A stretch of 64,000 nt of DNA from positions 1,922,001-1,986,000 of the forward strand of contig NC_090367.1 of NCBI RefSeq assembly GCF_035084215.1, given 5' to 3'. The position numbers and the translations under genes are program-made. The first letter of the stretch is position 1. Each line of letters starts with the position of its first letter. The DNA is from Heptranchias perlo. Its lineage: Eukaryota. This document shows, in pieces, positions 16,320-54,915 of the stretch. The notes beneath the pieces were generated by a model. That model made no database searches. It saw only the letters and a program-made list of their open reading frames with translations, and was not told the DNA's origin.

Positions 16320-19300
16320 TAGGTACATTGGAATATAGGAACAGGAGTAGGCCGTTCAGCCCCTCGAGCCTGCTCTGCCATTTGATAAGATCATGGCTGA
16401 TCTGTGATCTAACTCCATATCCCCGCCTTTGGCCCATATCCCTTAATACCTTTGGTTGCCAAAAAGCTATCTATCTCACATTTAAATTTAGCAATTGAGC
16501 TAGCATCAATTGCCGTTTGCGGAAGAGAGTTCCAAACTTCTACCACCCTTTGTGTGTAGAAATGTTTTCCAATCTCACTCCTGAAAGGTCTGGCTCTAAT
16601 CTTTAGACTGTGCCCCTACTCCGAGAATCCCCAACCAGCAGAAATAGTTTCTCTCTATCCACCCTATCGGTTCCCCTTAATATCTTATAATCTTTGATCA
16701 GATCACCCCTTAACCTTCGAAACTCCAGAGAATACAACCCCAATTTGTGTAATCTCTCCTCGTAACTTAACCCTTGAAGTCCGGGTATCATTCTAGTAAA
16801 CCTACGCTGCACTTCCTCCAAGGCCAACATCCGAAGGTGTGGTGCCCAGAACTGCTCACAGTACTCCAGGTGCAGTCTAACCAGGGTTTTGTATAGCTGC
16901 AGCATAACTTCTGGCCCCTTGTACTCCAGTCCTCTCGATATAAAGGCCAGCATTCCATTTGCCTTATTGATTATTTTCTGCACCTGTTCATGACACTTCA
17001 ATGATCTATGTACCTGAACCCCTAAGTCCCGTTGGACATCCACTGTTTTTAACTTTTTACCATTTAGAAAGTACCCTCTTCTATCCTTTTTTGATCCAAA
17101 GTGGATGACCTCACATTTGCCTACATTGAATTCCATTTGCCACAGTTTTGCCCATTCACCTAATCTATCAATATCGCTTTGTAATTTAATGTTTTCATCT
17201 ACACTGCTTACAATGCCACCAATCTTTGTGTCATCGGCAAACTTAGATATGAGACATTCTATGCCTTCATCTAAGTCGTTAATAAATATCGTGAATAATT
17301 GAGGCCCCAAGACAGATCACTGCAGGACTCCACTAGTCACATCCTGCCAATGTGAGTATCTACGCATTATCCCTACTCTCTGTCGCCTTTCGCTCAGCCA
17401 ACTTCCTAACCAAGTCCGTACTTTTCCCTCGATTCCATGGGCTTCTATCTTAGCTAACAGTCTCTTATGTGGGACCTTATCAAATGCCTTCTGGAAGTCC
17501 ATATAAATAACATCCATTGACATTCTCCTGTCCACTACTTTAGTCACCTCTTCAAAAAAATTCAATCAGGTTTGTCAGGCACGACCTACCTTTCACAAAT
17601 CCATGCTGGCTCTCTCTGATTAACTGAAAATTCTCGAGGTGTTCAGTCACCCTATCCTTAATTATAGACTCCAGCATTTTCCCCACAACAGATGTTAGAA
17701 TTATAGGTCTATAATTCCCTGGTTTCCCTCTCTCTCCTTTCTTAAAAAGCAGAGTGACATGTGCAATTTTCCCATCTAGAGGGACAGTTCCTGAATATAG
17801 AGAACTTTGAAAGATTATAGTTAGGGCATCTGCAATCTGCTCACCTACTTCCTTTAAAACCCTGGAATGGAAACCATCTGGTCCTGGGGATTTGTCACTA
17901 TTTAGTGCTATTATTTTCTTCATTAGTGTTGTTTTACTTATGTTCATTTTATTGAGTCCCTGTCCCCGATTCAATGTAAGTTTTCTTGGGATTTCCGGCA
18001 TGCTATCCTCTTTCTACTGTAAATACGGACGCAAAGTAATTATTCAACATGTCCACCATTTCCCCATTGTTGATGACAATATCCCCACTTTCAGTTTTTA
18101 AGGGGCCGACACTGCTCCTGACCACCCTCTTTTTCCTAATATAACTATAAAAGTTCTTTGTATTGGTTTTGATATCCGTTGAGAGTTTCTTTTCAATCTC
18201 TCTTTTTGTAGCTCTTAGTATTTGTTTCATGACCCTTTGTTGATCTTTGTATCTTTCCCATTCGCCAGGATCTGTGCCATTTTTTGCCTTTTTGTATGCC
18301 TGTTCCTTATGTCTTATACTGTCCCTTACCTCTTTAGTTGTCCATGGCTGTTTTTTTTTGGCAAATAGAGTTCTTGCCCCTCAGGGGTATAAAGCGATTC
18401 TGTATCACATTAAATGTTGCTTTAAACATTTCCCACTGATCATCAGTCATTTTACCCATTAACAGATTTGCCCAGTTTACTGTGGACAGTCTCTGTCTCA
18501 TCCCATGGATGTCGGCCTTACCCAAGTCTAGAATCTTAGCAGCTGATTCACTTTTTTCCCTTTCAAACACTACATTGAACTCGATCATGTTATGATCGCT
18601 GTTGGATAGATGTTCACACGCAGTTAAGCTGTTAACTAAATCTGGTTCATTACTCATTACTAAATCTAGTATGGCTTGCCCCCGTGTTGCCTCTAGGACA
18701 TACTGCTGTAGAAATCTATCCCGGAAACACTCAGCTTTGATGCTGGGTTAATCGCTTTACACCTTCTAGTTTTCACTGTATCTGTAGTGCCTTTCAGCTG
18801 CTCTACGCTTTTCCCTTCCCCTTGTTCTTGAACAACTATTTGTATTGTAAATTTCCTCTGGGTCCTCCCCTCTCTTGCTGCTCTCCTGACTCCACGCTCA
18901 GATTTCCATCCCCCTGCCACTCTAGTTTAAACCCTCCCCAACAGCAGTAGCAAACCGCCCCTGCAAGGATATTAGTCCCGGATCTGTTGAGGTGCAACCC
19001 ATCCGGCTTGTACAAGTAATCCCGAGATTACTACCCTTGAAGTCCTGCTTTTTAAACTTATTTCCTAACTCCTTATATTCTGCTTGCAGGACCTCATCCC
19101 TCTTTTTACCTATGTCGTTGGTACTGATATGGTACCGATACGTCCTCTGGCTGTTCACCCACCCCCTTCAGAATGTCCTGCAGCCGCTCAGTGACATCCA
19201 TGACCCTGGCACCAGGGAGGCAACATACCATCCTGGAATCACGTTTGCCGCCGCAGAAACACCTGTCTGCTCCCCTAATTATAGAATCCCCTATCACTAG

Positions 19301-19455
19301 TGCTCTCTCGACCTTTCTCCTCCCCACCCTGTGCAGCTGAGGCACCCATGGCGCTTTGGACTTGGCTCTGGCTGCACTCCCCAGAGGAACCCTCTCCCCC
19401 ACCAGTACCCAGAACTGAATATTGGTTGGAGAGTGAGATGCCCTCAGGGACTCCT
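16320..19455 (-). mobile_element. Young CR1 LINE (ORF1 esterase part plus disrupted ORF2) in STIP1 intron 7
   Basis: ORF1 LVIGDSIIRG...CLPGARV; RT KSPGPDG, DFQKAFDKVPH, KFADDTK; internal deletion at ~18733; CR1 tail at ~16320. Confidence 0.95.
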
Positions 19456-19805
19456 GAACTACCTCCATGGAGAACTTTAAAACTTTGACTTGCACATTGT
19501 ACAAAGGTTGTGTACGAAAAGTTTGCAGTTGTATTTTAGAATTGGAAAGAACAGAATCAATAGTACTCAACTCATGTACAGTAGATCGAATACTATCAAT
19601 GCTTATACCCCCCTCCCAAATATAGTTAAAATAATATAATGGGGCATAAAAATGACACTGATCCACCAGACCTGAGCCAGTGAACGACTGGTCCACGGGG
19701 ACTTAGGAATCTTACAGTGCAGTGAATTGTTGTACACTGAGTTCAGTGAATTCTACAATATTTTATCAGTAGACAAATTTTGTTGACTGCACATGGTTCA
19801 CTTAC

Positions 19806-22926: not shown

Positions 22927-23068
22927 CTGCTAGCCTGGCATCCACATTTTGCATTCCCTCCTTCAGCTGTTGGCTCCCTGGTTCGTGCTTTAGTCCCTCC
23001 TCATATGTTTTCTTCGCCTCCTCAAAGCGATTAAGGAATTCCAAGGCTGCAGCCTTCCTTGAATAGCC
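22927..23068 (-). CDS. STIP1: STIP1 exon 3
   Basis: [47 protein letters not shown]; AG/GT boundaries; 142 nt. Confidence 0.97.
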
Positions 23069-24297: not shown

Positions 24298-25240
24298 TAC
24301 ATACAAGAGTTCTATATACAAATGCATGGAGTATAAGGAATAAATTAAATGAACTACAGGTTCAAATTCAAATTGGAGGGTATGACATGATAGCTATTAC
24401 TGAGACTTGGCTGCAGGATGGTCAGGATTGGGAACTAAATATACCAGGTTATAAGGTCTACAGGAGAGATAGGGAAAATGGAAGAGGGGGAGGAGTAGCC
24501 TTAGTGATGAGAGATGAAATCACTTCAATGATAAAGGGGGATATAACGAGAGGTAAGCACCCATCAGAGACGTTATGGGTTGAATTGAGAAATAGGAAAG
24601 GATCTAAGACTATAGTGGGAGTTGTATATAGGACCCCTGGCAGCAGCTCTGAAGTGCTAGATTGTATAAATGCAGAGATTAGACAAGCGTGTAAGAAAGG
24701 CATAGTGGTCTTAATGGGGGACTTTAACCTTCACATAGATTGGGAAAAGCAGTCTAGCAACTGTCAGAAAGGTAGTGAATTTCTTGAGTGTTTCTGGGAT
24801 AGATTTCTACAGCAGTATGTCCTAGAGGCAACACGGGGGCAAGCCATACTAGATTTAGTAATGAGTAATGAACCAGATTTAGTTAACAGCTTAACTGCGT
24901 GTGAACATCTATCCAACAGCGATCATAACATGATCGAGTTCAAGGTAGTGTTTGAAAGGGAAAAAAGTGAATCAGCTGCTAAGATTCTAGACTTGGGTAA
25001 GGCCGACATCCATGGGATGAGACAGAGACTGTCCACAGTAAACTGGGCAAATCTGTTAATGGGTAAAATGACTGATGATCAGTGGGAAATGTTTAAAGCA
25101 ACATTTAATGTGATACAGAATCGCTTTATACCCCTGAGGGGCAAGAACTCTATTTGCCAAAAAAAAACAGCCATGGACAACTAAAGAGGTAAGGGACAGT
25201 ATAAGACATAAGGAACAGGCATACAAAAAGGCAAAAAATG
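24298..25240 (+). mobile_element. CR1 ORF2 endonuclease-only internal fragment in STIP1 intron 2
   Basis: IAITETWL...GGGVAL...MGDFN...SDHN (APE endonuclease); no 3' tail. Confidence 0.93.
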
Positions 25241-34165: not shown

Positions 34166-34760
34166 GACATCTGCTAATGCTCTGTAACCACTCACTCGGA
34201 GGTGAACAAGATTAGCTTGGGATGACTCTGCGTTTGACTTTGTTCTGTGTTTTTAATGGGTTTTTTTCTGTGGGGAAATGCCTACCTCCATTCAGCTTGT
34301 GGTTGAGAACACACTATGTGTGGAATCATGAGTGTACTTTATTCTGTGGTGCAGAATATATTTGAATACCTAAATGCAAATCCTCATCTCACTTAAAATA
34401 CATCATAAACACAGAAATGCAAGAAATATAAAAAGCCAAATAACCTTCAACTATGCTTTTTCAATACTTGCTATGTCTAGCTTGCTATCTCTTATTTTTC
34501 TTGTAACTACAAGCTCTCTTCAATATTGAGTTACTCTTCAGTGATATTTTGTGCCTGTGGGAAGGAACTATATGCAGATCTTCAGACACCGATTGAAATA
34601 TAGTCTCTCACCCAAAAAGCTGTTGAGGCTGGGGGATCAATTGAAAATTTCAAAACTGAGATTGATAGATTTTTGTTAGACAAGGGTATTAAAGGTTATG
34701 GAACCAAGACAATTAGATGGAGTTAAGATACAGATCAGCCATCAACTAATTGAATGATTT

Positions 34761-35090
34761 ACAGGCTCGATGGGCTGAATGGCCTCTTCCTGTTCCTATG
34801 CAACAGGCGCAAGGGGCTGAACGACCTCTTCCTGTTCCTGTGTAACAGGTCGAGGGGCTGAACAGCCTCCTGTTCCTATGTAACAGGCTCGAGGGGCTGA
34901 ATGGTCTCCTCCTGTTCCTATGTAACAGGCTCAAAGGACTGAATGGCCTCTTCCTGTTCCTGTGTAACAGACTCGAGGGGCTGAATGGCCTCCTCCTGTT
35001 CCTATGTAACAGGCTCCAGGGGCTGAATGGCTTCCTCCTGTTCCTATGTCACAGGCTCAACGGGCTGAATGGCCTCCTCCTGTTCCTTCC
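34761..35090 (+). repeat. Minisatellite, 8 units of ~42 bp, derived from a CR1 3' terminus
   Basis: Unit ACAGGCTCGAGGGGCTGAATGGCCTCCTCCTGTTCCTATGTA; preceded by CR1 3'UTR 34600-34760. Confidence 0.92.
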
Positions 35091-35129
35091 TAGAACAGAC
35101 AAGCAGGAAGAGAAAACTACAAATCCTAG

Positions 35130-35306
35130 AAGCCCTTGCGCTGGGCATCCGCCTCCCCTGATCTCTGATTGGCCTCCATTGCCCCGCGTCACGTACCCGG
35201 AAGAATTTCGCGGGCGTTGCGTGCACACGGCGAAGAAAGTTTTTAAAAAAAACTCAATTAAAAATTTTTATTTTAAAAACTCTTTTCCTCGACCCCCGCC
35301 GCACAA
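35130..35306 (+). promoter_or_regulatory. MACROD1 CpG-island promoter/5'UTR
   Basis: CpG-rich; CCGCCT, CTGATTGG (CCAAT box), GCGTCACGT, CCGGAAG (ETS); continues into CpG-dense exon 1. Confidence 0.7.
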
Positions 35307-35619
35307 ATGTTGCTTCAAAGCAAACCGATGGAGAAACTTTTCGCTTTGAGAAGCCGGAGTTGGAGTGCTGTTTGGAACGGGCGGCCGTTGGTGGTGTCGG
35401 CGCGCGCCCGCCGGCCGACAAGTTCAAACGCGTTCCAATCCCAACCGTCCCGCGGCTCGGCGCCCGCGCGCTCGCTGTTGTCCGTCGGCCGCCGCCGCCG
35501 CCGCCACTCGCTGCCGTCGAGCGGGGCCCCGGCTTGTGGCCTCTCGACGTCCTTCGCCAGCATGACATCCAAGGAGTTTAACCCCACTTACCCCACCACC
35601 GACTGGAAGGTGGCGAAAA
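35307..35619 (+). CDS. MACROD1: MACROD1 exon 1 (mitochondrial presequence-like N-terminus)
   Basis: MLLQSKP..., Arg/Ser/Ala-rich and acid-poor, ending MTSKEFNPTYPTTDWKVAK (human MSLQS...STSTDWKEAK); donor A|GTAAGT; head-to-head with STIP1 as in human. Confidence 0.88.
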
Positions 35620-35819
35620 GTAAGTTTCGTTTTCAGCCCCCTCCCCACACACACACACACAACTCCCTCCTTCTCCACCATCACCTCAAATGGAAGGGGA
35701 AAAACCAATCTTCTTGGAATCTAGAGATTAAAAAAACATATTTTAAAAAATTCATCTAACATTGCAATAGATTCTTCCTCAGAAATAAATGTTACTTCCC
35801 AATGTCACAAATATAACTC

Positions 35820-37640: not shown

Positions 37641-38222
37641 AAAAATAATGCCCACTTGAATGAGGTACTGGAAAGCAGCTGCCATCTGTGGAACTGGATT
37701 GCTAGCAAGGGAGTCAAACTGTAGGAAGAGGAAAAAAAACTGAAGAGGGAATAAAAGAGTGGATGCAGTATTTGACAGAGGTCATGGATATGTGCCCACA
37801 ACTTCTGTTAGCTAGAGTTTAGGGTATGTAGAATAAGAGGTGTAGCTCAGGAATATTTAATAGTTTTTGAAAAGTACCTATGATTTCAGTTTGCTAAATT
37901 GTAACTTGTGTGCTAGGGAGTGCTTACATCTTCATACAAATTGTTCACTGGTGCATTGTGCTCAGGAGCAGTAGGATGTTTACCCAAGATATACCCCTGT
38001 GAATTTGTGATCTTGACCAGACTGACTGGAGTCAAAATGCTTCTGCAGAGAGAAAGAATTGTCAAAGATCAGTAAAGCCTTGGAATAGGTTGACTGGTTG
38101 TTTATTGTTGGGGGAAGGATGTGTGGCAATGGTAAGAGGATCTACAGTGGCATGGAAAATCCCTTGGGGAAAAACGGGGATAAAAATACAGAACCTTTTT
38201 GTTTGTCTTTTTTCTAATAAAG

Positions 38223-38324
38223 AGCATCTAGAGGAAATTGATCAAACAGAGAAACGAATATACTACAAAGCTGAAAGGTTTGTTACCCTTGATGAGATTC
38301 AAACATGGAAAGACTTTGCTGAAG
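38223..38324 (+). CDS. MACROD1: MACROD1 exon 2
   Basis: KHLEEIDQTEKRIYYKAERFVTLDEIQTWKDFAE (human FLKGLSDKQREEHYFCKDFVRLKKIPTWKEMAK); phase 1-1, 102 nt, GTGAGT donor. Confidence 0.9.
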
Positions 38325-39949
38325 GTGAGTAATATATTTTGATATTTAAAAGAAAAAAATAAACTTGAAGGAAAAGGTACCTCAAAAGTTAGAACTGTAA
38401 ATGGTTAATACTTAAATGTGTTCCATATCTTCCCTTCCTTCCTGAAAATTCTTATTAAAAAAAAATCACATTTTAAGGCTTATCAGTTTTTAGTGATCAT
38501 TAAGTCTGTGCAGAGTTAAGAGCTCTGCCAGGAGAAAAGTAAGAAGGGAAGGAGGTCTACAATTCACCTCAGTGTCCCTGAACCAGGAAAGGAAAAAAGT
38601 CAGCTAAGGTTCCTGCTCTTGGTTATTATCCAGTGATGGAAGTGTGCATATGTGGAAGTTTGGTGAGCATAAGATTGGGCTTGGCTTTGATGCTCTCCAA
38701 ATAGCCTGGTGACATTTATTCTCTCGGTGCACAAATGAAGAGTGGCCATTTCAGTGAGGTACTGGAACCTTTCCCCAGTGCGATTCTGCATCCTCAGGAG
38801 AAAGTTAGCAAGTTTGGGCAGAATGAAACTATAATTTTATCAATTAACTTCATATTTCAGAGTCCACCAAAGTGTTAAAAAACATGTCTTTGGTAATGGA
38901 GGAAATGTGTATAATATGGTTAAATTATTTCAAAACATTAACTTACTCAGTTCTGACAGCTGAGTAGGAAATGAGTTCCAATTTCCCCAAATATATGTTA
39001 TATACACATGAAAGAATGTTGAATAATAAATTTACTTAATAATCTGTACCAAAGATGGTATATATATTCTACACCAATATATATCAGACATTACTTTGCA
39101 AAATACTCTTTAAGGGCTTGAAATGAAAGCTGCAGAATCAGTGATTGACAAAACTCTGGTTTATGTATTCTTTAAAAAAAAAACTGGCCTGTCAATATCC
39201 AAAACATTGTGTACTTACTTTACATTATACATACAGTACCTGGAGCCACTTAGTAAAGATTGTATTATTCAGCATGTGGGAATGCTATGAAAAGACCATT
39301 ATGTTGCCATTGGAAATCAAGTATCAGTCCCTTGCACAAGTTCACTGCCGTGGGCCAGTCATATTACACAGCTTGCGTTGATTCTAAGTAGTTTCAGTTT
39401 TTCATTGACAATCAGGATGTGAAGTCACTCGAAGCAAACAGTGTGAGCCCATTTCCAAGAAGTGGTTTCACATTGCTTTGGCTTCACACCAGCTACAGTA
39501 TAACTGCAATTGGCATGTGGTAAAGTTTAAAAACTTTTCAGGTAGTTTGACTTTTCAAACTTTTTAAAGTTAACTGAAAGACTGCTTTACCTGCTCCTCA
39601 TCACTGTAAGGAGGTATCTGTCTCAAACTGGCAATTGTAATAAAACCATGCCATCACAGTTGTTGCTCCATTGCTAAGTCCAGTTATCTCGGTCTGGGAA
39701 ATCTGTTAATTTTAAGTCCTATTTTATAAGCTCAGCTGCATTATGGAATTATATACAAGTTCGTGTGGAGGATAAATGCCAAAATGGACTGGTTCGGCCA
39801 AACAGCCTGTTTCTGTGTTATAATTTCGATGTAATTCTATGTAATATATAGCAACATTTTCTGGAATTACAATTGTTTATCAGAGCTTTTACTTAATTAA
39901 AAGTGGCTATTCAGAAATTAAATCTACTTTAATGTCTTTTTGCATTCCT

Positions 39950-39955
39950 TTTATT
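39950..39955 (-). terminator. Candidate polyA signal of the RILPL2-like gene
   Basis: AATAAA on the minus strand ~180 nt after the stop. Confidence 0.5.
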
Positions 39956-40134
39956 TCTGCTCTAACTAGAAAAAGAAAGTAAAATCAACTTTTCGGTTTG
40001 TGTAGAAAAGTAAACTTTGAAAACTCTTGTTTCATGACAATATACAGTTGTTCCAAAGTACTGCAATTCTGTTTAATAAAGCAATGAGTTCAAAATACCA
40101 CGAAACCTTTTGAAGATCTGAGTCTCCCTGGTGG

Positions 40135-40698
40135 TTAAGGATTTTTTCTATGTTTAAGAGAAAACAGTTTTTTAATCATAGTTTGTTCACTAGCACCACT
40201 TGCACTTGACTCATTAATTTCTACGGTTTGAGATTCTTTTGTGGAGATTAATCCGCTTTTGTAACACTCAAGTTCTTCTTGTGCAACAAGCAACTGGGCC
40301 TTCAGCTTATTGCGTTCTTGCAATACATCCCTCAGTTCCTGTAGTGTGAAACGTGGGCGATCTGGGTTGTTGACATCAACCACAAGTTTGTCCTGCCGAG
40401 TGCATTGCTGCTTCTTTGAATCGCTTACTGCCTGTTGAAGTCTTTCCGTTTCAGCTCTGAGATTGTCCCGTTCAATTTTCAACGTTTCTACTGTTAGGTT
40501 GTGCTTATTCACCAGCGACTCGAACATTTCTAGAACTCTGATTATCTTATACTGCAGCTCAGAGACACTGTGGCAGCCTTCTGAGCCGCTGAGTTTGATT
40601 AAATCTCGGCCAATGACGTAAGATATATCGTAGACATCTTCAGCCGTGAGCTCGAATGGATCTTTCTCAAATGCTGATGCAGGGTTCAATTCCTCCAT
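40135..40698 (-). CDS. RILPL2: Intronless RILP-like protein 2 homolog (187 aa), nested antisense in MACROD1 intron 2
   Basis: RH1 (FELTAEDVYDISYVIGRDL...LQYKIIRVLEMFE), RH2 (VVDVNNPDRPRFTLQELRDVLQERNKLKAQLLVAQEELECYKSG) and C-terminal EQTMIKKLF match RILPL2; in-frame TGA upstream of the first ATG; symbol marks the family, may be a paralog. Confidence 0.9.
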   Translation of the reverse strand: MEELNPASAFEKDPFELTAEDVYDISYVIGRDLIKLSGSEGCHSVSELQYKIIRVLEMFESLVNKHNLTVETLKIERDNLRAETERLQQAVSDSKKQQCTRQDKLVVDVNNPDRPRFTLQELRDVLQERNKLKAQLLVAQEELECYKSGLISTKESQTVEINESSASGASEQTMIKKLFSLKHRKNP

Positions 40699-40879
40699 TG
40701 ATTTTTCTTGCAGTGCCAATTTGTCTCCTCACCCTCCTGCTAGACTGAAACAGAAAATAAAACCAGATGATCATCAAAGTTTAAGAATTACTGTTTTATA
40801 AATGGCATGCTTAAGAAAAGCTTCACTGCCTATATTCAAATAATACACTTATAAAATGGGCAGCTTTTTATTTGATTAC

Positions 40880-41021
40880 CTGCTTCAACAAAATGACTGT
40901 TCTCCTCACTTCCTTTTTTTGCAACTAAGTTTCACATGACAGGAAGCAGTAGAGTTGTTTGATTGACATTTCTAAAAACCAATCCAAGATTTTGTTTGCC
41001 AAACCCTAGTTGCTTAGCAAC
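40880..41021 (-). promoter_or_regulatory. Candidate non-coding first exon and promoter of the RILPL2-like gene
   Basis: Donor CAG|GTAATC at 40880/40879 and acceptor ttttctgtttcag at 40745 give a 135-nt intron; X-box GTTGCTTAGCAAC 41009-41021; GTCATGTGA 40932-40940. Confidence 0.5.
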
Positions 41022-41139
41022 ACTAGCAGAGAAGTAGGATTTGTGCCTGCTTTTTTCTCTTAAAAAGAACTTTTTTGATTCCATAATGGACTGCATGAAA
41101 AGTACTAAAATTAACATTTTTCACCCTCTTGTTTTTTTA

Positions 41140-44100
41140 TTCGTTCATGGGATGTGGGCGTCGCTGGCAAGGCCAGCATTTATTGCCCATCCCTAATTGC
41201 CCTGGAGAAGGTGGTGGTGAGCCACCTTCTTGAACCTCTGCAGTCCGTGTGGTGAAGGTTCTCCTACAGTGCTGTTAGGTAGGGAGTTCCAGGAGTTTGA
41301 CCCAGCGACGATGAAGGAAAGGCGATATATTTCCGAGTCGGGATGGTGTGTGACTTGGAGGGGAACGTGCAGGTGGTGGTGTTCCCATGTGCCTGCTGCC
41401 CTTGTCCTTTTAGGTGGTAGAGATCGCGGGAATGGGAGGTGCTGTCGAAGAAGCCTTGGCAAGTTGCTGCAGTGCATCCTGTGGATGGTACACACTGCAG
41501 CCACTGTGCGCCGGTGATGGAGGGAGTGAATGTTTAGGGTGGTGGATGGGGTGCCAATGAAGTGGGCTGCTTTGTCCTGGATGGTGTCGTGCTTCTTGAG
41601 TGTTGTTGGAGCTGCACTCATCCAGGCAAATGGAGAGTATTCCATCACACTCCTGACTTGTGCCTTGTAGATGGTGGAAAGGCTTTGGGGAGTCAGGAGG
41701 TGAGTCACTTGCCGCAGAATACCCAGCCTCTGACCTGATCTTGTAGCCACAGTATTTATGTGGCTGGTCCAGTTAAGTTTCTGGTCAATGGTGACCCCCA
41801 GGATGTTGATGGTGGGGGATTCGGCAATGGTAATGCCGTTGAATGTCAAGGGGAGGTGGTTAGATACTCTCTTGTGGGAGATGGTCATTGCCTGGCGCGA
41901 ATGTTACTTGCCATTTATCAATCCAAGCCTGGATGTTGTCCAGGTCTTGCTGCATGCGGCCACGGACTGCTTCATTATCTGAGGGGTTGCGAATGGAACT
42001 GAACACTGTGCTAATATCAGCGAACATTCCCATTTCTGACCTTATGATGGAGGGAAGGTCATTGATGAAGCAACTGAAGATGGTTGGGCCTAAGACACTG
42101 CCCTGAGGAACTTCTGCAGCAATGTCCTGGGGCTGAGATGATTGGCCTCCAACAACCACTACCATCTTCCTTTGTGCTAGGTATGACTCCAGCCACTGGA
42201 GAGTTTTCCCCGATTCCCATTGACTTCAATTTTACTAGGGCTCCTTGGTGCCTCACTCGGTCAAATGCTGCCTTGATGTCAAGGGCAGTCACTCTCACCT
42301 CACCTCTGGAAGTCAGCTCTTTTGTCCATGTTTGGACCAAGGCTGTAATGAGGCCTGGAGCCGAGTGGTCCTGGCGGAACCCAAACTGAGCATCGGTGAG
42401 CAGGTTATTGGTGAGTAAGTACCGCTTGATAGCACTGTCGACGACATCTTCCATCATTTTGCTGATGATTGAGAGTAGGCTAATGGGGCAGTAATTGGCC
42501 GGATTGGATTTGTCCTGCTTTTTGTGGACAGGACATACCTGGGCAATTTTCCACATTGTCGGGTAGATGCCAGTGTTGTAGCTGTACTGGAACAGCTTGG
42601 CTAGAGTCGTGGCTAGTTCTGGAGCACAAGTCATCAGCACTACAGCCGGGATGTTGTTGGGGCCCATAGCCTTTGTTGTATCCAGTGCACTCAGCTGTTT
42701 CTTGACATCACGTGGAGTGAATCGAATTGGCTGAAGACTGGCTACTGTGATGTTGGGGATATCGGGAGGTGGCCGAGATGGATCATCTACTCGGCACTTC
42801 TGGCTGAAGATAGTTGGAAACGCTTCAGCCTTGTCTTTTGCACTCACATGCTGGACTCTGCCATCATTGAGGATGGGGATGTTTACAGAGTCTCCTCCTC
42901 CCGTTAGTTATTTAACTGTCCACCACCATTTACGACTGGATGTGGCAGGACTGCAGAGCTTTGATTTGATCCGTTGGTTGTGGAATCGCTTAGCTCTGTC
43001 TATAGTATATTGCGTCCGCTGTTTAGCATGCATGTAGTCCTGTGTTGTAGCTTCACCAGGTACGTTTTTAGGTACGCCTGGTGCTGCTCCTGGCTTGCTC
43101 TTCTACACTCCTCATTGAACCAGGGTTGATCTCCTGGCTTGTTGGTAATGGTAGAGTGAGGAATATGCCGGGCCATGAGATTACAGATTGTGCTGGAATT
43201 CAAATCTGCTGCTGCTGATGCCCCACAGCGCCTCATGGATGCCCAGTTTTGAGCTGCTAGATCCGTTCTGAATCTATCCCATTTAGCACGGTGGTAGTGC
43301 CACACAACACGTTGGATAGTCGTCTCAGTGCGAAGATGGGACTTCGCCTCCACGAGGACTGTGCGGTGGTCACTCCTACCAATACGGTTATTGACCGATG
43401 CATCTGCGACAGGTAAATTGGTGAGGACGAGGTCAAGTAGGTTTTTCCTTTGTGTTGGCTTGCTCACCACCTGCCACAGGCCTTGTCCGGCAGCTGTGTC
43501 CTTCAGGACAGGGCCAGCTCGGTCAGTCGTGGTGCTACCGAGCCACTCTTGGTGATGGACATTGAAGTCCTCCACCCAGAGTACATTCTGTGCTCTTGCT
43601 ACCCTCAGTGCTTCCTCCAAGTAGTGCTCAAGATGGAGGAGGACTGATTGATCAGCTGAGGGAGGGCGGTAGGTGGTAATAGGAGGAGGTTTCCTTGCCC
43701 ATGTTTGACCCGATGCCATGAGATTTCATGGGGTCCGGAGTCAATGTTGAGAACTCCCAGGGCCACTCCCTCCTGACTGTATATCACTGTACTGCCACCT
43801 CTGGTGGGTCTGTCCTGGTGGGACAGGACATACCCAGGGATGGTGATGGAGGAGTCTGGGACGTTGGCTGAAAGGTATGATTCTGAGAGTATGGCTATGT
43901 CAGGCTGTTGCTTGACCAGTCTGTGGGACAGCTCTCCCAACTTTGGCACCCAGATGTTAGTGAGGAGGACTTTGCAGTGTCGACTGGGCTTGGTTTGCCT
44001 TTGTTGTGTCCGGTGCCTAGTGGTCTGTCCGGTTTTATTCTTATGACTTTTCAACTGAGTGGCTTGCTAGGCCATTTCATAGGGCGATTAAGAATCAACC

Positions 44101-50681: not shown

Positions 50682-50798
50682 AAAATAAGTTTAAACAGCT
50701 GATATCCCACTATGCGAAGGACGATGTTATGAATGAAAAGCTTTCACTCTTGCAGGAGGACATCACCAAGCTGGAAATTGATGTAATCGTCAATGCAG
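50682..50798 (+). CDS. MACROD1: MACROD1 exon 3 (start of macro domain)
   Basis: ENKFKQLISHYAKDDVMNEKLSLLQEDITKLEIDVIVNA; macrodomain DITxLxxDxIVNA motif; tttgcag/GTTGGT; 117 nt. Confidence 0.93.
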
Positions 50799-53349: not shown

Positions 53350-54915
53350 GAGTGCTCAGTGCACTGGATACTGCAAAGGTTATGGGCCCCGACAACAGCC
53401 CGGATGTAGTGCTGATGTCCTGTGCTCCAGAACTAGCCAAACTGTTCCAGTACGGCTACAACACTGGACATCTAACCGACAATGTGGAAAATTGCCCAGG
53501 TTTGTCCTGTCCACAAAAAGCAGGACAAATCCAATCCGGCCAATTACTGCCCCATCAGCCTATTCTCAATCATCAGCAAAGTGATGGAAGGTGTCGTTGA
53601 CAGTGCTATCAAGCGGCACTTACTCACCAATAACCTGCTCACCGATGCTCAGTTTGGGTTCCGCCAGGACCACTTGGCTCCAGACCTCATTACAGACTTG
53701 GTCCAAACATGGACAAAAGAGCTGAATTCCAGAGGTGAGGTGAGAGTGACTGCCCTTGACATCAAGGCAGCATTTGACCGAGTGAGGCACCAAGGAGCCC
53801 TAGTAAAATTGAAGTCAATGGGAATCAGGGGGAAAACTCTCCAGTGGCTGGAGTCATACCTAGCACAAAGGAAGATGGTAGTGGTTGTTGGAGGCCAATC
53901 ATCTCAGCCCCAGGACATTGCTGCAGAAGTTCCTCAGGGCAGTGTCCTTGGCCCAACCATCTTCAGCTGCTTCATCAATGACCTTCCCTCCATTATAAGG
54001 TCAGAAATGGGAATGTTCGCTGATGATTGCACAGTGTTCAGTTCCATTCGCAACCCCTCAGATAATGAAGCAGTCCGTGCCTGCATGCAGCAAGACCTGG
54101 ACAACATCCAGGCTTGGGCTGATAAGTGGCAAGTAACATTCGCGCCAGACAAGTGCCAGGCAATGACCATCTTCAACAAGAGAGAGCCTAACCACCTCCC
54201 CTTGACATTCAACGGCATTACCATCGCCGAATCCCCCACCATCAACATCCTGGGGGGTCACCATTGACCAGAAACTTAACTGGACCAGCCATATAAATAC
54301 TGTGGCTACAAGAGCAGGTCAGAGGCTGGGTATTCTGCGGCGAGTGACGCACCTCCTGACTCCCCAAAGCCTTTCCGCCATCTACAAGGCAGAAGTCAGG
54401 AGTGTGATGGAATATTCTCCCCTTGCCTGGATGAGTGCAGCTCCAACAACACTCAAGAAGCTCGACACCATCCAGGACAAAGCAGCCCGCTTGATTGGCA
54501 CCCCATCCATCACCATAGACATTCACTCCCTTCACCACCGGCGCACCGTGGCTGCAGTGAGTACCATCCACAGGATGCACTGCAGCAACCCGCCAAGGCT
54601 TCTTCAACAGCACCTCCCAAACCCGCGACCTCTACCACCTAGAAGGACAAGGGCAGCAGGCGCGAAGGAACACCACCACCTGCACGTTCCCCTCCAAGTC
54701 ACACACCATCCTGACTTGGAAATATATCGCCGTTCCTTCATCGTCACTGGGTCAAAATCCTGGAACTCCCTTCCTAACAGCACTGTGGGAGAACCTTCAC
54801 CACACGGACTGCAGCGGTTCAAGAAGGCGGCTCACCACCACCGTCTCAAGGGCAATTAGGGTTGGGCAATAAATGCTGGCCTTGCCAGCGACGCCCACAT
54901 CCCATGAACGAATTT
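53350..54915 (+). mobile_element. 5'-truncated LINE, same family as 41140-44180
   Basis: ORFs 53482-54267 and 54302-54859 nearly identical to the minus copy; MFADDC; same tail. Confidence 0.95.

Follow-up and report, generated by a model that had tools for sequence, protein, structure and literature searches.

A RILPL2-like retrogene nested antisense in MACROD1 of Heptranchias perlo, with a leader probably inherited from its parent

The intronless gene, its host and its neighbours

The window, the whole 64,000-nucleotide stretch of Heptranchias perlo DNA analysed here, carries on its minus strand an open reading frame of 187 amino acids (40698–40135) without internal stops or introns. Pfam assigned to it an RH1 domain (residues 21–88, E 1.8e-14) and a RILP/RH2 domain (residues 118–175, E 3.2e-21), both over the cut-off; RH2 was placed at about residues 112–149 in our feature map, which also includes a C-terminal KKLF motif. 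Three RILPL2 chains were the only PDB relatives at E 0.001, and mammalian RILPL2 (4KP3, 6RIR, 7LWB), which gave the best PDB matches, has the same RH1 and RH2 layout. Translation and Pfam thus confirmed the uninterrupted 187-codon frame, with complete RH1, RH2 and C-terminal motif, that an earlier note on this DNA had described. Unlike mammalian RILPL2, the copy has no coding introns and does not adjoin RILPL1.

The coding exon extends into a 5′ UTR part (40699–40744) that is covered by contigs of sequencing runs X1–X3 and is matched in short pieces by the N-terminal extensions of whale-shark and skate proteins. Upstream of it lie a 135-nt GT–AG intron within the 5′ UTR (40745–40879) and a leader exon, of which the part under RNA-like contigs is 40880–40919 (X2 to 40905, X3 to 40919). 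The in-frame stop and strong acceptor reported earlier are both present, as a TGA 11 codons 5′ of the ATG and a polypyrimidine–CAG ending at 40745, with a GT donor at 40879. The 3′ UTR spans 39080–40134, with AATAAA at 39955–39950 and ATTAAA at 40077 and 39933. No A-run of eight or more occurs on the minus strand within 38901–40135, in agreement with the earlier statement that no poly(A) relic is visible; its absence is expected at the retrogene's age. No tandem repeats were found in 38000–42000, and the 5′ region of the retrogene was single-copy in the genome search. The window also holds broken frames at 41127–43719, 16603–19468, 24387–25184 and 53482–54859, which we take to be of LINE-type reverse transcriptase/endonuclease; one of these starts about 200 nt upstream of the retrogene leader and may bound it.

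The host gene runs on the plus strand. The coding part of MACROD1 exon 1 was placed at 35307–35619 from the sequence, and a host contig carries 411 nt ahead of exon 2 (38223–38324). A host transcript contig joins exon 2 to sequence with a single match in the window, at 50682, the start of exon 3 (50682–50798), which closes intron 2 and matches only human MACROD1. The retrogene frame therefore lies within MACROD1 intron 2, and the antisense nesting proposed earlier was borne out by the exon matches and the spliced host contig. A downstream exon on the genomic contig that holds the window scored 47.9 bits with MACROD1 against 45.0 with MACROD2, whereas the paralogous exon on C8 scored 59 with MACROD2 against 46.5 with MACROD1. 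A STIP1 exon (22928–23068, minus strand) lies upstream of the host gene. The GC-rich stretch at MACROD1 exon 1 (35100–35620) may be a head-to-head promoter shared with STIP1, and directly 5′ of it, at 34760–35090, an imperfect tandem repeat with a unit of about 40 nt can be seen by eye.

A 652-codon FLRT frame (C46:2003461–2001506, minus strand) lies antisense in MACROD1 intron 3, on the retrogene's strand, and by position it is FLRT1. Its paralogues were found at C8:86.36 Mb (62%) and C10:65.19 Mb (49%), the closest of them on C8, upstream of the MACROD2 exons found there. The FLRT genes nested in MACROD1 and MACROD2 resemble the retrogene in being antisense, with a single coding exon inside a MACROD intron. 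FLRT nesting is common to both MACROD paralogues (C46 and C8), whereas the RILPL2 copy is found in MACROD1 only. With FLRT in intron 3 and the RILPL2 copy in intron 2, the copy is therefore a second antisense gene nested in MACROD1, as had been suggested. Elsewhere on C46, simple tandem repeats give rise to long stretches that are open on both strands or in several frames (1893255–1895937, 1904864–1906982, 2142193–2143502 and 2227532–2229616). Clusters of Macro-domain matches at C7:19.96–20.10 Mb, C7:36.15–36.34 Mb and on C240, several of them single frames of about 770 codons, are probably expanded PARP9/14-type genes.

Transcription and the origin of the leader

Eight sequencing runs cover part of the window. 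None is recorded as RNA and the run type is our guess; they were treated as RNA because their contigs join host exons and skip a GT–AG intron. Pieces of host intron near exon 2 have a depth of 4–8, compared with 73–98 for the contigs over the retrogene frame, and this contrast, together with the spliced host exons, indicates that the contigs behave as RNA. In four runs (X1–X4) of one sample, organism A, single contigs cover the frame. The earlier note had proposed a check for reads spanning 40880 to 40744, and this junction was seen in X2 and X3, which join 40744 to 40880 over a 135-nt gap bounded by CT..AC on the plus strand (GT–AG on the minus strand), although contigs of this one sample give neither strand nor start. 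The loose end of the X1 contig continues with the next eight letters of the leader and then a tail that we take to be library adapter, and the X4 contig stops at 40739, short of the junction. We also weighed, and rejected, an origin of the transcripts by read-through or splicing from FLRT, which lies 39 kb upstream on the retrogene's strand: only the local junction was seen, and the X1 end consists of leader and adapter, with no distant exon.

At the 3′ side, the contigs reach about 39080 (the X2 record spans 39080–40744 and the X1 record 39099–39758). One contig extends all the way from 39080 into the leader, and transcripts continue for about 870 nt beyond the AATAAA proposed earlier. That hexamer is present where it was reported, but it is not the only 3′ end. 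In organism A no cover was seen above 40919. Of the four listed runs of the related organism B, two were aligned to the window; both cover the frame and retain the intron, reaching 40909 and 40870. A skate transcript record (P0175) also seems to retain the 3′ end of the intron. The read-through in organism B and the skate record imply that the intron is spliced in some transcripts only.

About 300–400 nt upstream of the retrogene ATG are collinear, in a gapped alignment, with the region upstream of the spliced RILPL2 gene of the same genome (the parent, described below). Anchored at the ATG, the 400-nt alignment scored above 300 of 300 dinucleotide shuffles in all three scorings. With the parent as query its score was reached by none of 1700 genomic windows, and with the retrogene as query by 1, 1 and 12 of 1700 under the three scorings. 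The anchored alignment had no significance at 100–200 nt, and when the upstream region was scored locally in four ways, 1, 516, 138 and 35 of 1732 windows did as well, so that one scheme is significant and another borderline. The splice sites themselves have counterparts in the parent. The retrogene donor, CAG/GTAATC, 182 nt 5′ of the ATG, aligns with CAG/GTGATC 164 nt 5′ of the parent ATG, and the acceptor TGTTTCAG aligns with parental TGTTTCAA, where the parent has CAA at the acceptor position. The retrogene's UTR intron thus aligns to the parent 5′ region and may derive from sequence that is exonic in the parent.

The best-matching part of this region is a block of 43 alignment columns (40949–40908) that is 70% identical to the parent (30/43, counted by eye) and in which two GGAA/TTCC cores flank TCATGTGA (parent TGACGTGA); the motif labels are those we presume to apply. 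The 5′-most contig ends, at 40870–40919, fall within or just below this block, which we regard as a candidate inherited core promoter. Weak as the similarity is, the leader was probably inherited from parental 5′ sequence rather than recruited from the host. The earlier proposal that the retrocopy had acquired a spliced leader thus stands as far as splicing is concerned, but the leader exon and its intron look parent-derived and not newly made from the host intron. The simplest reading is that a long parental mRNA carried a downstream promoter with it and that part of the leader was later spliced. Promoter inheritance by way of a long mRNA is estimated at about 3% of expressed mammalian retrocopies in section 6 of PMC4772013, and the cases described there resemble the present copy in that their upstream sequence aligns to the parent 5′ region. 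They differ in age: the dS values given in that section are 0.08–0.39, and the copy here would be far older. With intronized retrogenes (PMC3565874, PMC3002245) the copy would share a UTR intron within parent-derived sequence.

The parent gene, distribution and constraint

A search of the genome with the retrogene frame gave seven matches. One is the window frame itself; four are exons on C28, divided equally between a spliced RILPL2 and RILPL1; the remaining two, on C31, are weaker and probably RILP. The earlier note had called for a search for a separate spliced RILPL2 near RILPL1, and one is present in this genome. It adjoins RILPL1 and has four exons (C28:46639812–46639513, 46638155–46638004, 46636609–46636517 and from 46633786) with GT–AG introns, the first three being 300, 152 and 93 nt long and the last one short. 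All three parental coding introns are cleanly absent from the retrogene frame, which crosses the junctions, at codons 96/97, 148 and 178, in frame and without a gap, the signature of a processed copy. The copy is thus not a sole, ancestrally intronless RILPL2. BLASTN of copy against parent found no non-coding similarity except repeats, no parental intron or flanking sequence was found beside the copy, and the two 3′ UTRs have no significant likeness (score reached by 117 of 800 windows).

Exon 3 of the parent carries a TAA, so that its protein ends at 175 amino acids; RH1 and RH2 are whole, exon 4 still encodes IFSFGKDT, and the 175-residue protein is identical to record P0169, whose source label is Heptranchias perlo. 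An annotated parent isoform skips exon 3, with its TAA near C28:46636540, and ends in another exon near C28:46633400. With RH1 and RH2 intact, the parent here may still be functional.

The best protein matches of the copy come from sharks, rays and Callorhinchus, at 66–82% identity. Retro-type proteins account for 33 records, from 23 named cartilaginous-fish species including this one plus unnamed transcript records, and the frame is open in all of them. Loss of introns and position in MACROD1 were established in the Heptranchias perlo genome; for the other species the assignment is made from proteins, the tree and contig sizes. In all 13 species for which both contig sizes are listed, the retro-type gene and RILPL1 are on contigs of differing size, whereas parent-type RILPL2 is on a contig of RILPL1's size in both species that could be compared (2/2), as it is in gar, pike and opah. 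In several gene models of fishes, RILPL2 and its neighbour RILPL1 are merged.

In a tree of 37 rows, the 17 retro-type rows formed one clade with Callorhinchus (99/97) and three parent-type rows another (100/98); placing Callorhinchus outside the retro-type group or with the parents was rejected in each case (p-AU 0.009). Provided that the gene in Callorhinchus stems from this same insertion, the copy would date back at least to the crown of the cartilaginous fishes. When RILPL1 served as outgroup, two differing, partly implausible roots resulted, with 8 and 13 rows left out: a mixture model joined retro and parent types (99/97), whereas LG+G4 placed the parents with bony RILPL2 (95/98) and broke up the retro group. 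The clade of parent and bony RILPL2 was not rejected (p-AU 0.26), and the copy may accordingly be older.

The comparison with organism B lists 13 changes over the 564 nt of coding sequence, against 22 over 338 nt of flank (p 0.002); the counts are approximate and taken from the changes listed. The frame has one in-frame 12-nt indel, and the UTR has several others. Within the frame, 8 changes are non-synonymous and 5 synonymous, giving an omega of about 0.44 that is not significant (p 0.16), with no listed non-synonymous change in residues 1–81 or 112–149. The earlier statement that the copy is still under selection is therefore supported by the coding/flank comparison and by the frame being open across the class, but not by dN/dS; the frame kept open across the cartilaginous class is the stronger evidence. 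Disabled orthologues with dN/dS near 1 and no expression, which would have spoken against selection, are not what was found. Loss of introns, a separate parent, an open frame and transcription support the reading of the gene as an old, intact and expressed retrocopy. At window position 40441 the frame lacks 12 nt, four coiled-coil residues, that are present in organism B and most retro-type proteins; Pristiophorus lacks the same four residues, possibly independently.

In mammalian RILPL2, R130, R132 and K149 are required for binding of phospho-Rab, as stated in the part of PMC7139218 available to us; the X-cap RPRFT and the K149 equivalent are present in the copy, and R114, R116, K133 and E141 (equivalent to R130, R132, K149 and E157) are invariant in 21 of 21 aligned rows. 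RH1 of the mammalian protein binds myosin Va and RH2 binds phospho-Rab8/10, according to the accessible text of PMC7994366. F56 sets the preference for myosin Va over dynein, and V59Q abolishes binding, in the passage of PMC9284427 that cites Wei et al. 2013. At these two positions, with numbering taken from the 4KP3 alignment, all 33 retro-type records have Tyr50 and Ile53. The F56 position is Phe in 135 of 138 bony records (three being unmatched by the pattern) and in five of five parents, and Pro in 68 of the 70 RILPL1 records matched out of 84; the retro-type Tyr occurs in none of the 135 scored bony records. The replacement of Phe56/Val59 by Tyr/Ile is conservative and is not the RILPL1 state. 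Being conservative and fixed in the clade, it suggests that the copy likely binds myosin Va still, perhaps in a tuned manner.

Probable replacement of the parent and alternative origins

We consider it probable (roughly 70%) that the locus holds an intact, transcribed, nested RILPL2 retrogene that likely arose before chimaeras and sharks split, kept an inherited promoter block and took over from its parent in most cartilaginous fishes. On this account a LINE reverse transcriptase acting in trans would have made the copy from a RILPL2 mRNA with a long leader; transcription would start near 40905–40950 from the inherited block, and some transcripts would lose a portion of the inherited leader by splicing. 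The protein would form dimers and, like mammalian RILPL2, use RH2 to bind LRRK2-phosphorylated Rab8/Rab10 and RH1 to bind myosin Va. With the copy doing the job, the parent would have decayed from its C-terminus and then been lost several times.

The case for replacement is drawn from protein records and annotation. Parent-type proteins occur in 3 of the 23 species (five records), with annotated isoforms in three sharks. The Heterodontus parent, used as a query, returned the three known parents first (79–100%) and then retro-type proteins at about 60%. No other cartilaginous-fish parent was found among the best 120 of 515 matches or among 96 longer proteins, though RILPL1 is annotated in the species without a listed parent-type protein. 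On the usual species tree, as we assume it, these absences require at least three losses. The C-terminal basic-basic-Leu-Phe motif is present in 33 of 33 retro-type and 95 of 138 bony records, many of the other bony records having near variants or lacking the last exon, and in none of the five parent-type records, so that the copy keeps an ancestral tail that the parent has lost. Together these data suggest that replacement of the parent is under way. The same data bear on the possibility that retrogene and parent coexist everywhere and divide the work, the parents of the other 20 species being unannotated or too decayed. The parental RH1/RH2 cores are as near to bony RILPL2 (64–67%) as those of the retro copies (59–66%), the three sharks do have annotated parents, and the genome searches covered Heptranchias perlo only. 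Against this stand the failure of those protein searches to find a further parent where RILPL1 is annotated and the altered C-termini of all known parents, and we judge general coexistence unlikely.

Two other origins of the copy appear far less probable still. A duplication at the DNA level, carrying the promoter into MACROD1 and followed by recombination with a cDNA that removed the three coding introns, would explain directly the roughly 400 nt of upstream similarity that extends into promoter-like sequence. It leaves unexplained why neither intron nor flank of the parent lies beside the copy and why the 3′ UTRs are not significantly alike, and a long mRNA can bring a downstream promoter with it, as section 6 of PMC4772013 describes; we hold such a duplication to be very improbable. 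The lowest credence of all goes to an older paralogue, born of an early jawed-vertebrate duplication, whose introns disappeared and which survived in cartilaginous fishes but not in bony vertebrates. The grouping of parent and bony RILPL2, recovered under LG+G4 and not rejected by the AU test, is what such a history predicts. However, retro and parent types group together in the mixture-model tree, contig C8 with the paralogous MACROD2 and FLRT has no RILPL2-like match, and the retro-type Tyr is missing from every scored bony record.

The retrogene reading can be extended. A retrogene more than 400 My old would have carried its parent's promoter, intronized part of the inherited leader, fixed the Phe-to-Tyr change at the myosin Va specificity site and displaced its parent independently at least three times (in chimaeras, rays and most galeomorph sharks), with three shark lineages in which the parent is decaying from the C-terminus forming a graded series; the date and the species tree are those we presume. 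This fuller history is tentative, and we would put it at somewhat less than even odds. If the replacement pattern is borne out at the genome level, both copies, a truncated parent and a lost parent would stand side by side, and one could ask by experiment whether an inherited promoter enables a retrocopy to supplant its parent.

As a rule, orphan retrogenes come to notice only after the parent has gone. In the available parts of PMC3548309 (Ciomborowska et al.) and PMC4772013 (Carelli et al.), they are described as constrained, intronless coding copies with a lost or failing parent. The present copy differs from these in that a C-terminally altered parent survives in 3 of 23 species, this genome included. 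It is therefore not an orphan in the strict sense, and intermediate stages are visible. The copy is a real case of an old, working retrogene of known type and an unusually complete example.

The protein of the copy is already in NCBI and UniRef, so that the gene itself is already annotated. A literature search, in which most subscription papers were out of reach, found no account of its retro-origin. The main text of a preprint on retrocopies in 244 genomes (10.64898/2026.06.26.734816) does not contain the string 'RILP', and the supplements of that preprint may list the copy. The biological stakes may be modest, since RILPL2 knockout left ciliation unchanged in mouse or A549 cells, as given in the accessible text of PMC7994366. 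Most entries for sharks, rays and chimaeras under the name 'RILP-like protein 2' appear to represent the retro paralogue rather than the orthologue that shares synteny with human RILPL2, an identity that matters for comparative work on LRRK2–Rab–RILPL signalling.
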